Below, in pieces: positions 50,932-64,000 of a stretch of 64,000 bases of DNA. Origin of the DNA: an uncultured Nitrospirota bacterium (GTDB lineage: Bacteria > CG2-30-53-67); NCBI GenBank assembly GCA_947259355.1, contig CAMYMF010000013.1, positions 874 through 64,873 of the forward strand, given 5' to 3'. The notes below the pieces were generated by a model. That model saw nothing but the letters and a program-made list of their open reading frames with translations, had not been told where the DNA came from and did not search any database. The position numbers were made by a program, and so were the translations under genes. Position 1 is the first letter of the stretch. Each line of letters begins with the position of its first letter.

Positions 50932-51072
50932 GAAAAAGCCGAACTCACCAAAGGTTGTTTGCTTCGACAGTTTTACCGTTTCCCCCCCAAGACCCGCCGC
51001 TTAGCAACCCGTCCTCACGGGCGGTTCAGCTCTTCGGGAAACTCTCGTGACAAGGACTTGTCTGCTTCACAC
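50932..51072 (-). promoter_or_regulatory. GEMM-I-like leader, copy A (diverged core, decayed terminator)
   Basis: RNA sense: GAAGCAGACAAGUCC..UUUCCCGAAGAGCUGAACCGCCCGUGAGGACGGGUUGCUAAGCGGCGGGUC..CCUUUGGUGAGUUCGGCUUUUUCU. The 5' arm of the terminator is not conserved. Confidence 0.45.
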
Positions 51073-51090
51073 ACAGTCTGTACAATGCCG

Positions 51091-52056
51091 TTAGAATAAT
51101 CTCTCATAACAGGCCGCCACATCATCAAAAACATCGATCAGGTGATAGGCGCCCAGCTTTCCCACACCGGGAATCTGCTCATGATGGTGGGCAGCGTTAT
51201 CCAACTCCTCCAGGATCCATCTCTTGCGCCACGGAGAGCTGAACGGGAAACAACGAAGGCTTGAATGCCTTCCGTCAATATTCTTCAGCCTTATCAGCAT
51301 ACATCGTGAAGGAAACGCAGCACTGGAAGGAAAATCTCGATGCCGGGACGCGTAGTGCCTTTTGACCCAATAGCGATCCACGGACGCATAGGCGCGGCTC
51401 TCCACCTCTTGCTGCCTGAGCCTTTCTCTGTCCACATAACGCTGATAAATATCTCCGCCCGACAACCTTGGGATCCCCTGCTCCCAGGGCGTGTTAGCGC
51501 CGGCCGCCTTGCACGCCCCCTCAACCCGATCCTCAAGCTCCGCCAGCTTTCCACGTAAGCGGTGACTCTGCTGTTCCTTCGCTTTGACCTCTGCATCGGT
51601 CTTTTTGAGATCCTCTTCGGTCCAGGACAAAAGAGCTTGGATTCTTTGATGGGCCTCGTCAACCTCCAATGGAGCTGTCTCAAGCACTTCGATATGAAAG
51701 CTGCCGTCTGGGTTGATCTTCCCAAAGGTACTCGGGATTCGGGAGTTGAGGGTGAGCCTCTGGCAAGAACTCGTACCCCCGCCATCCTTGATGATTCTTG
51801 ATGCATCCTCCAACACGCTCAAGGTAATCTTCGAGTCCCATCTGAGACTATGCAGCTTCTCCACCTGATCCCGCAGGTATTGCACCTCTGCATTCAGCGA
51901 GGACCATTGCTGTTCAGCAGCCATATAATCCTTTCTGGCTTGGGCACAAGCAGCCGCAGACGAAGATCCCCCCTGGCCGTAGGAAAGGGATGGCATTGAA
52001 AGACTCAAAACAGCGAAAATGCAAAATACCCATATTGACGTGTGCAAGATCTTCAT
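51091..52056 (-). CDS. Secreted coiled-coil protein, unknown function (last gene of the RHS operon)
   Basis: Start at MKILHTSIWVFCIFAVLSLSMPSLSYG (AGGAGG RBS). Central coiled coil. No recognisable family. Confidence 0.55.
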   Translation of the reverse strand: MKILHTSIWVFCIFAVLSLSMPSLSYGQGGSSSAAACAQARKDYMAAEQQWSSLNAEVQYLRDQVEKLHSLRWDSKITLSVLEDASRIIKDGGGTSSCQRLTLNSRIPSTFGKINPDGSFHIEVLETAPLEVDEAHQRIQALLSWTEEDLKKTDAEVKAKEQQSHRLRGKLAELEDRVEGACKAAGANTPWEQGIPRLSGGDIYQRYVDRERLRQQEVESRAYASVDRYWVKRHYASRHRDFPSSAAFPSRCMLIRLKNIDGRHSSLRCFPFSSPWRKRWILEELDNAAHHHEQIPGVGKLGAYHLIDVFDDVAACYERLF

Positions 52057-52221
52057 GCCCGCCTCCTGCTTCAATTGCAGAGTCCTCCCGATCAAAAGGA
52101 ACTCATTCATATTTCGGTCATTCATGGTACGATCGCTGTTAGACTCCATTTTATGAGTGGTCATTGACGGACGCCCCAACCCGCTTTACAGCCTTCATTC
52201 TCATCAGGACTGTACCAGCTG

Positions 52222-62458: not shown

Positions 62459-62548
62459 TTGGCGCCATCTTCTTATTTCAGGGACTTGCTGTGGTCCGAC
62501 CCGCTGGAGCGCCGGAGCGGTTCTTGCCGCTGCTAAGGAATCTCGTAG

Positions 62549-63703
62549 TTATCCAACGCAGGTGGCCAAAGATTCAAAGCTGTTCCCTGCCTGCCGAAGG
62601 TCCACGTACTGATAAAGAGTATAGGAATAATAAACAGGCGCGAAGTTCTGCACCCAAAGATAACGATAACTATCCCAGCCTGGAGGCACATCGGGATTCT
62701 GATTGCAATGGATAATCGTATTGGGCAAACGACCACATAGACGGCCCCAGCGATCAACATACGCGCCAGGAAAAACCCGTTTGACACATCTATCCAATTG
62801 CTGTATCCATTCGTCTGTCAACCCACGTATGGCCGGGTCATTCCAGGGATCGACCGGAGGTGGTGGTGGAACGGAAGGTCCACCATAGAGCGCCTGGATA
62901 CGCTGAATATCATCAAGTGCTAGAGTTCTGCGCATACCCAAATAAGCTGCGAACATGATGGCGTTTCTGTCTGTAGAATGATCCAGACCCAAGGCGTGTC
63001 CGAACTCGTGAACTGCCACCGATATTAGGTCAAACGTATTAACAGGATTGGGGACGGTGATCGTCCAGGTTTCATCTTCATCAAAATGTGTATCGCCTTG
63101 CAAAGGTGCATTGGGTGGCGGATAGAATGCGTGCGCGAGGGTACTACCGGGACCATCGAAAGGTGCGTTATCACCGTGATCACGGCTGAAGAAACCGATC
63201 ACTATATCCGGACTATCGCTGACTTGGACCTCGGTAAAGGTTAGTTGAGTAACCGCGCCCCAGAGGTTAAGCGCTTCCTGAATAGCGGCAATCGCAGTTG
63301 CCATCGGCAGGTCAGGCGTTACATTGTTGATGGCATATCGCAAATTCAGGGTTGGCCAAGCATCACCAACCCCTTTGACGCCTGCCGGATAGGGAGTATC
63401 TGGGACGCCGCAACGCGGTAAGGATAAGAAAGCCGCGGTTGGCCCATCAATAATACCTGTCTGTTCAATGCCAAAATACCTTTGAAATGCACGGAGGGCC
63501 CTGTAAGTTGCATCGTCGAATACACCGTACTCGTATTCAGGTGCCTGGGGAGAGCGATATCGGCGATAAGGATCAGCCGGATCTTCTAATTTGAGATAAC
63601 CGAAACGGCGCAGGTAATTCTGCAACTCCCGAACTATGTCGCCCTTTGCACCTGTCTCCAATCCGATAGCAGTGCGATCAAAAAACGGTTTACTCTGTTG
63701 CAT
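62549..63703 (-). CDS. Matrixin (M10A, MMP-like) zinc metalloprotease with PG-binding-like prodomain and cysteine switch
   Basis: Prodomain GDIVRELQNYLRRFGYL...ALRAFQRYFGIEQTGIIDG. PRCGVPD at 63398-63418. HEFGHALGLDH at 62978-63010. Met-turn AIMFAAY. A proline linker and a Cys-containing C-terminal domain follow. Confidence 0.85.
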   Translation of the reverse strand: MQQSKPFFDRTAIGLETGAKGDIVRELQNYLRRFGYLKLEDPADPYRRYRSPQAPEYEYGVFDDATYRALRAFQRYFGIEQTGIIDGPTAAFLSLPRCGVPDTPYPAGVKGVGDAWPTLNLRYAINNVTPDLPMATAIAAIQEALNLWGAVTQLTFTEVQVSDSPDIVIGFFSRDHGDNAPFDGPGSTLAHAFYPPPNAPLQGDTHFDEDETWTITVPNPVNTFDLISVAVHEFGHALGLDHSTDRNAIMFAAYLGMRRTLALDDIQRIQALYGGPSVPPPPPVDPWNDPAIRGLTDEWIQQLDRCVKRVFPGAYVDRWGRLCGRLPNTIIHCNQNPDVPPGWDSYRYLWVQNFAPVYYSYTLYQYVDLRQAGNSFESLATCVG

Positions 63704-63849
63704 CCCTTCTCCTCAGGTGTTATGTACGCGTCTCAGACTGCCATGATTCAGAAGAACGAATAAGATTGACACATCAACGATGACAATCTCAAAATTTTCA
63801 GAATCCTCGGTTAATCTTTAAGAGTCTGACAGAGAACACATTGAATCCC

Positions 63850-64000
63850 TTTAGTGCCGAAAGAGCTCATTAGGTTTTTCCCTCACCGTCTCCTCCTGCC
63901 CCGTACTCTAAAAACCCCCTGCTTTCCGTCCCGTCCTCACGGGCAGTTTAGCTTTTCGGGAAAATTTCGCTCTACAGATTCTTTTTGCTTCAAACGTTCA
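63850..64000 (-). promoter_or_regulatory. GEMM-I-like leader, copy E (5' end runs off the window)
   Basis: RNA sense: GAAGCAAAAAGAAUCUGUAGAGCGAAAUUUUCCCGAAAAGCUAAACUGCCCGUGAGGACGGGACGGAAAGCAGGGGGUUUUU...AAAAACCUAAUGAGCUC. No strong terminator is seen. Confidence 0.55.

Follow-up and report, generated by a model that had tools for sequence, protein, structure and literature searches.

A cluster of GEMM-I-like leaders on the minus strand

The sequence analysed here (the window) is a stretch of 64,000 nucleotides (nt) from contig CAMYMF010000013.1 of an uncultured Nitrospirota bacterium, and it contains, within 13 kb, five intergenic copies (A to E) of an element resembling the GEMM-I riboswitch, each on the same strand as, and upstream of, minus-strand genes (Table 1). 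The genes that follow encode an FG-GAP_2 protein (copy A), an operon of a CsgG-like lipoprotein, an RHS/YD-repeat protein and a 362-residue protein (copy B), a metallo-beta-lactamase (MBL)-fold protein (copy C), a 51-residue product (copy D) and a matrixin protease (copy E). The names given to these genes in a first-pass annotation of the window are borne out by Pfam, and the description there of extracellular or surface genes agrees with the N-termini, the products being mostly exported, with signal-peptide or lipoprotein-type N-termini in the CsgG-like, RHS, 362-residue and MBL-fold proteins. This context of environment and membrane genes is a likeness to GEMM-I, whose dense occurrence before genes for the environment, membranes and motility was the observation on which the family was founded (PMC1950547), although a CsgG-like/RHS operon and an MBL-fold hydrolase are not among the classic GEMM targets.

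A search for the core CCCGAARAGCTRAACYGCC with up to three mismatches returned five matches in the window, all on the minus strand, against a mean of 0.08 in shuffled windows, none of which reached five in 100 shuffles. With a covariance model (R1) built from the 50-aptamer alignment described below and run unfiltered on the whole window, nothing but these five copies rises above noise, all other matches scoring 10.6 bits or less. The recurrence of the element before five minus-strand genes or operons, as first annotated, is thus borne out by the core search and the shuffles; the four RNA strings quoted in that annotation are exact matches to the sequence, and the generic repeat against which it had cautioned is not what is seen, the 64 kb having yielded no plus-strand copy and none within a gene. 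Copies B and C are intact, E is diverged, and A and D are decayed remnants; the cluster is unusually dense for an otherwise ordinary, already described kind of regulator.

Table 1. Positions of the riboswitch-like copies, their expression platforms and the associated genes in the window.
Feature	Position	Strand	Basis
Copy A, decayed; FG-GAP leader, immediately following the stop codon of the 362-residue protein gene	50935..51044	minus	R1, 19.3 bits
Copy A, core match	51038-51020	minus	Core search
Copy B, aptamer in the leader of the CsgG-like/RHS operon, with P1, P1a (GUGA tetraloop), AAA linker and P2	59262..59360	minus	RF03167, R1
Copy B, core match	59354-59336	minus	Core search
Copy B, expression platform: 17-bp intrinsic terminator GGCCGAGCUGCCGAAGG / CCUUUGGUGAGUUCGGC plus U6	59237..59281	minus	Local fold, -26 kcal/mol
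Block GTGTGAAGCAAAGAGAATCTGTACACAGAGAC upstream of copy B	59361..59392	minus	Multiple and pairwise local alignment
Copy C, aptamer with GUAA tetraloop; leader of the secreted MBL-fold gene	61040..61138	minus	RF01051, RF03167, R1
Copy C, core match	61132-61114	minus	Core search
Copy C, expression platform: 17-bp perfect terminator plus U6, overlapping the aptamer 3' strand	61014..61059	minus	Terminator scan (61059-61020); local fold, -34 kcal/mol
Copy D, truncated remnant: P1 5' strand plus P1a hairpin with AUAA loop	62055..62092	minus	Core with 3 mismatches; R1, 11.9 bits
Copy D, core match	62086-62068	minus	Core search, 3 mismatches
Copy E, diverged aptamer in the matrixin leader	63850..63966	minus	Rfam, 21.9 bits; R1, 37.7 bits
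Copy E, core match	63960-63942	minus	Core search
FG-GAP_2 protein, downstream of A	48855-50951 (48855..50906 from the first in-frame ATG)	minus	Pfam, E = 4.6e-110
B operon (CsgG-like, RHS, 362-residue)	51091..59068	minus	Pfam, N-termini
362-residue protein with signal-like N-terminus, B operon	51091-52179	minus	No Pfam match
RHS/YD-repeat protein, 2007 residues, B operon	52222-58245	minus	Pfam
CsgG-like lipoprotein, downstream of B	58322-59176 (58322-59068 by the 248-residue database form, P0241)	minus	Pfam
MBL-fold protein with signal peptide, downstream of C	59899..60978	minus	Pfam Lactamase_B; N-terminus MQYLLRSFVTVFLLLSGVMAMGVSEA
51-residue open reading frame, downstream of D	61788-61943	minus	Open reading frame; no Pfam match
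Matrixin (M10) protease with PG_binding_1, downstream of E	62549..63703	minus	Pfam

Copies B and C are GEMM-I riboswitches

Copies B and C both match curated models of the Rfam clan CL00126, to which RF01051 (c-di-GMP-I) and RF03167 (c-di-GMP-I-GGC) belong. In the Rfam scan, copy B (59266-59355) is assigned to RF03167 with 59.5 bits (E = 1.7e-11), only 0.5 bit above the gathering score (GA) of 59, with a second, weaker clan match at gathering level suppressed, and copy C (61045-61134) to RF01051 with 52.2 bits (GA 35); in a permissive scan (E <= 10 over 50000-64000), RF03167 is the best-scoring model for copy C, at 56.5 bits. The corresponding R1 scores are 78.4 bits for B and 73.6 bits for C, both of which are in the seed alignment. 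Copy E stays below threshold in Rfam (21.9 bits, E = 0.22) and reaches 37.7 bits with R1 (E = 8e-10), the second hairpin (P2) of the model being skipped in both cases, while A and D have no Rfam match in the permissive scan and score 19.3 bits (with about 14 non-standard pairs) and 11.9 bits (E = 0.13), respectively, with R1. The model for the other class of cyclic di-GMP (c-di-GMP) riboswitch, c-di-GMP-II (RF01786), has no gathering-level match in the whole window and none in the permissive scan, and assignment to that class was rejected. The covariance-model search that had been proposed at first annotation is therefore positive for the c-di-GMP-I clan at B and C and negative at A, D and E; the five GEMM-I-like leaders reported there are of the right kind, B and C passing the Rfam thresholds, but their number was overstated, E being sub-threshold, A without a match and D a stub. 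Copies B and C are genuine riboswitches of the GEMM-I (c-di-GMP-I) type; they add members to an established class, and no new kind of RNA or mechanism is revealed by the cluster.

The RF03167 label of copy B is not to be taken literally, since the match reflects overall shape and not the diagnostic nucleotide. Like the window copies, the variant has a short P2 without a tetraloop receptor, and its model is the best in Rfam for B; its consensus, however, has a G after the closing pair, in place of A47 (GACGCGAAgC), where the window copies read GACGGAAAGC with an A, as does ordinary c-di-GMP-I. Assignment to the GGC variant was rejected on this ground.

The first hairpin of GEMM-I is composed of a 2-bp stem, a 3-nt internal loop, a 6-bp stem and a GNRA tetraloop (PMC1950547). 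In copies B, C and E, this hairpin has CU/GG closing pairs, an AAA internal loop, a 6-bp stem and a GUGA or GUAA cap (GYRA here), and in B and C it is followed by the AAA linker and a P2 of 4+3+4 bp, a layout common to RF01051 and its Vibrio cholerae representative, Vc2. Alignment to the Rfam consensus, onto which the Vc2 numbering was transferred partly by what we take to be the Vc2 sequence, places G, A and C at the equivalents of the ligand contacts G20, A47 and C92 in both B and C. In the known class, G20 recognises one guanine of the ligand through its Hoogsteen edge, C92 forms a Watson-Crick pair with the other, and the backbone phosphate of A47 contacts a ligand 2'-hydroxyl (PMC5888326, PMC6140456). 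The window copies have one nucleotide fewer than most relatives in the junction preceding G20.

Relatives in other genomes and covariation of the fold

The 2-bp closing helix of the window copies is C-G/U.G (GCU...ACGG), as opposed to G-C/C-G (GGC...ACGC) in the GEMM-I consensus, and relatives were sought, in one genome per species, with the pattern GCTAAA-N6-GNRA-N6-GACGGAAAGC, which captures these unusual closing pairs. The scan returned 92 loci, mostly in metagenome-assembled genomes (MAGs) of Desulfobacterota and Nitrospirota, showing the closing-pair subtype to be widespread. The most similar sequences come from Nitrospirota MAGs: that at locus L073 is 85.6% identical to copy B over 132 nt, terminator included, and is followed by L016, L061, L003, L085 and L047. 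Five of these leaders (L073, L016, L061, L047 and L085) are 82-86% identical to B and C over aptamer and terminator and have the platform CCGAAGGA...CCUUUGGUGAGUUCGGC-U6 in common with them; the genes downstream, however, are unlike the seven genes of the window, and no protein similarity was found between those seven and the genes adjoining the related riboswitches at the 92 loci. Across these MAGs, aptamer and terminator form a tightly conserved cassette. A recent local duplication giving rise to B and C was considered and rejected as not demonstrable, the identity between them (84.9%) being no higher than that of either to L073 (82-85%).

Within the alignment of 50 aptamers, 93.2% of the cells paired in the GEMM-I fold hold a pair, versus 35-47% when the partners are slid by one to three columns; changes on both sides are seen at 13 of the 21 pairs, and none of 500 shuffles matches any of the observed measures. 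Covariation thus gives strong support to the fold for the subtype as a whole. The structure-compatible changes that had been noted at first annotation among the window copies themselves are thin, as the P2 of B and that of C differ by one wobble change and a loop-proximal extension; because the window copies add so little variation, the real covariation comes only from the other genomes, and the covariation check proposed for the five copies succeeds strongly among the 50 relatives and owes little to the copies that prompted it.

In several relatives two GEMM-I copies lie close together (L023:2008-2183, L054:6352-7423, L084:2161-4285 and L072:4600-7659). Those of L023 are 144 nt apart, each with a terminator-like hairpin, which is a known tandem arrangement.

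The terminators of B and C and a proposed ON switch

In both B and C, the 17-bp terminator hairpin is present in the minimum free energy (MFE) structure of the whole leader, with a fold z of -3.4 for B and -5.6 for C. Its 5' arm, GGCCGAGCUGCCGAAGG, corresponds exactly to the P2 3' strand of the aptamer, the two junction nucleotides (C92 among them) and the 3' strand of P1, and since this arm is common to aptamer and terminator, the two structures are mutually exclusive. The overlap of hairpin-plus-U6 terminators with the 3' side of these two aptamers, which the first reading of the sequence had picked out, is therefore upheld by the terminator scan as well as by the folds. Of 75 related riboswitches, 46 have the same platform, with terminator arms that covary across the relatives (GCCGAGCU/AGYUCGGC, GCCGGGCU/AGCCCGGC and GCCGGGUU/AAYCCGGC).

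This layout fits an anti-termination model, and a GEMM architecture in which more ligand means more expression was already described when the family was discovered (PMC1950547). We consider it very probable (about 0.88) that B and C are c-di-GMP class I riboswitches acting as transcriptional ON switches, with E a diverged copy and A and D decayed. In the proposed mechanism, the nascent leader would, without ligand, fold into the terminator hairpin and U6 tract, and transcription would halt before the gene; binding of c-di-GMP would stabilise the aptamer (P1, P1a with its GYRA tetraloop, AAA linker and P2), which would sequester GGCCGAGCUGCCGAAGG and so allow RNA polymerase to read through. Copy B would in this way switch on the CsgG-like/RHS operon and copy C the secreted MBL-fold hydrolase, and high c-di-GMP would thereby be coupled to export or surface functions in this organism.

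Several observations weigh against this reading. A C.A mismatch interrupts P1a in all of the window copies and sets them apart from GEMM-I. Nearest-neighbour folding does not favour the aptamer fold, at -20.7 versus -31.4 kcal/mol for B and -14.6 versus -28.1 kcal/mol for C; such a result is expected where ligand and tertiary contacts stabilise the structure, but since even these two intact copies have an MFE structure other than the consensus fold, the energetics cannot confirm a switch, and thermodynamic folding was dropped as a test of aptamer integrity. Orthologous loci are likewise of no help: no riboswitch was found at 80 metagenomic loci (560 kb) with homologues of the MBL-fold protein (66-81% identity), at three loci with matrixin orthologues (66-76%), or at eight loci with CsgG homologues, several of which have an RHS gene (CsgG-RHS operons, 65-71%), a single weak match, at L182, apart. 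Conservation of the gene-riboswitch pairing is consequently unusable as support, and the wiring is lineage-specific.

Copies E, A and D: diverged and decayed states

The 5' half of copy E is canonical up to GACGGAAAGC, including G20 and A47. Its P2 has been rebuilt as GGGUUUUU/AAAAACCU around a 29-nt loop, with the P2 base AGC/GCU and the AAA linker kept, and the 3' junction reads AGCU-CUUUCGG in place of AGCU-GCCGAAGG, so that the position of C92 is a U unless an indel is assumed (CU instead of GC, leaving the third contact ambiguous). A consensus-like fold closed by a 6-bp CCGAAA/UUUCGG helix is possible at -21 kcal/mol, versus -34.7 kcal/mol for the MFE, although the A-rich junction would then be paired. 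The 280-nt leader is without a terminator or a clear helix sequestering the ribosome-binding site (RBS), and it folds no better than shuffles (z = 0.06). Copy E is best described as a diverged derivative of uncertain activity.

In copy A, the P1a hairpin is intact, but GCUGAAC (loop GAA instead of AAA) stands in place of GCUAAAC and GUUGCUAAGC in place of GACGGAAAGC; both closing pairs, the AAA linker and about four P2 pairs are lost. The 3' arm of the terminator and its U5 tract are identical to those of B, whereas the P2 3' strand, which is also the terminator 5' arm, is substituted at 7 of 23 nt, three of the seven changes still being pairing-compatible with the 3' arm. The residual hairpin has -12 kcal/mol, versus -26 kcal/mol in B and -34 kcal/mol in C, and the leader folds with z = -0.36. 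In copy A (50958-51044, minus), the internal loop is broken by an A-to-G change (GCUAAA to GCUGAA), which also creates a 6-bp complement to UUCGGC of the retained 3' arm, and the segment containing GCUGAA pairs with UUCGGC at a partition-function probability of 0.92; this may be selected or coincidental. Copy D, about 125 nt upstream of the 51-residue reading frame, has lost the closing pairs, and its likeness to the other copies stops after GGACGGGA, beyond the first hairpin, with nothing of the linker or P2. A search for an expression platform in E, A and D found none that is convincing. Copies A and D no longer conform to the aptamer consensus; they are decayed remnants, presumably inactive.

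Sequences upstream of the leaders

The block GTGTGAAGCAAAGAGAATCTGTACACAGAGAC that precedes copy B is also found upstream of A (51045-51075) and E (63967-63995) and is not found upstream of C; pairwise local alignments of A with B and of B with E reach into it. It may be a promoter or a 5' leader. A sigma-70 promoter scan upstream of the leaders gave nothing convincing, and the block itself has no assignable -35/-10 elements. Some 45 nt upstream of copy D (62093-62140, minus) resemble the sequence preceding the L073 riboswitch, L073:6361-6405 (GAGGAGGGRATAT...ARAATCCCCG), the likeness extending to 75% identity over 85 nt when the 5' part of the riboswitch is included; this block differs from that of A, B and E.

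Ligand and alternative explanations

The predicted ligand is c-di-GMP, because the nucleotide at the G20 equivalent is G, not A, in every intact copy and in all 50 relatives. The first-pass annotation had left 3'3'-cyclic GMP-AMP (cGAMP) and cyclic di-AMP open as alternatives, and the G at the cGAMP-defining position narrows the choice to c-di-GMP. Sensing of 3'3'-cGAMP by riboswitches of the GEMM-Ib type, or of some other cyclic dinucleotide, deserves attention since GEMM-Ib shares the GEMM-I fold and is common in Geobacter-type bacteria (PMC6140456), where (Gs1761, for example) it likewise occurs in many copies per genome in the leaders of genes with extracellular functions, and since some natural members are bispecific. 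GEMM-Ib is, however, defined by an A at the Vc2 G20 equivalent (PMC6140456), and the window does not have it: G occupies this position in A, B, C and E, the corresponding column 15 is an invariant G in the 50-sequence alignment, and the equivalents of C92 and A47 are canonical in B and C, which makes a ligand other than c-di-GMP very improbable. Still less can be said for a dispersed repeat (a repetitive extragenic palindrome, a miniature inverted-repeat transposable element or a promoter cassette) whose resemblance to GEMM is incidental and which has no riboswitch role. The approximately 30 nt that A, B and E share upstream of the aptamer, and the existence of decayed copies, as in mobile repeats, would suit such an element; it is already effectively refuted by the above-threshold matches to curated covariance models, the strong covariation across phyla, the strictly strand-specific placement in 5' untranslated regions and the B-C identity, which does not exceed that to another Nitrospirota-MAG riboswitch.

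The number of working copies is a separate matter. The first-pass annotation had proposed a local second-messenger regulon of five members, and under this proposal A, D and E would be divergent but active sensors, perhaps with altered ligand or output. In its favour, copy E has its whole 5' half, a potential two-hairpin fold with a 6-bp closing helix and a low R1 E-value (8e-10), and the substitutions in A are non-random, its terminator 3' arm being 100% identical to that of B. Set against this are the skipping of P2 in E by both Rfam and R1, together with its U at C92 and its leader devoid of terminator or clear RBS-sequestering helix; the shuffle-like folding of A, which has lost closing pairs, linker and four P2 pairs; and the loss from D of everything 3' of P1a. 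No relatives with A-, D- or E-type sequence were found for a test of conservation. With A and D decayed and E sub-threshold, a five-member regulon is unlikely, and c-di-GMP-dependent switching at B and C remains the preferred reading.

Gene context in the window and at related loci

The CsgG-RHS pairing recurs at L176, L177, L182 and L183. At two of these loci, both metagenomic (L176:5807-10774 and L177:342-5309), a histidine kinase and a sigma-54-dependent response regulator precede the CsgG-like/RHS operon, and there is no riboswitch; the regulatory input to the operon therefore appears to vary between lineages. A weak R1 match at L182:291-386 (plus strand; 19.4 bits, E of about 1e-3) lies upstream of a small reading frame and a second CsgG-like gene, reads GUGAAAC...GGGGCUGGAUGC in place of the consensus, and has no gathering-level match in Rfam; this may be chance, or a GEMM-like element that has diverged very far.

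The 51-residue reading frame downstream of copy D encodes an internal repeat (APWWISAELRIQE / APWWIAAELLIQD) and sits in a 1.4-kb stretch (61134-62548) with no other reading frame of at least 100 residues. Elsewhere in the window, a typical Gram-negative envelope cluster (1965-19556, plus strand) encodes BamA, LpxD, an MsbA-like ABC exporter and a Kdo transferase, a PAS histidine kinase is found at 32159-33844, and a haem-biosynthesis cluster at 35-42 kb contains HemA, a CobA/HemD fusion, HemB and HemL, with HemB being 72-85% identical to proteins of Nitrospirae/Nitrospirota MAGs and of MAGs labelled 'Deltaproteobacteria'; the HemB homologues P0122 and P0123 are at 91-92% identity. No GGDEF/EAL gene was seen among the window reading frames that were checked.

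Implications for riboswitch turnover and c-di-GMP signalling

A speculative and rather doubtful reading, marginally less so than that of five active copies, is that the cluster records riboswitch turnover in progress, in which a single promoter-aptamer-terminator cassette, conserved within the lineage, would have been adopted in this genome by unrelated genes for exported proteins, the orthologues of which lack it elsewhere, and would now be intact in B and C, re-engineered in E and disabled in A and D. The rebuilt P2 of E and its altered C92 nucleotide might, on that supposition, change the ligand specificity or give a ligand-independent leader.

The cluster is of modest interest for bringing intact, rebuilt and decayed copies together, and for having a CsgG-like/RHS operon and the gene of a secreted MBL-fold enzyme as the targets to which the switch has been recruited. 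Copies that are intact, diverged and decayed, standing side by side, make a compact natural series on the gain, rewiring and loss of riboswitch leaders, and the prediction names c-di-GMP as the signal by which a CsgG-like/RHS secretion operon and the gene of a secreted MBL-fold hydrolase would be expressed in a Nitrospirota-related uncultured lineage of little-known regulation.

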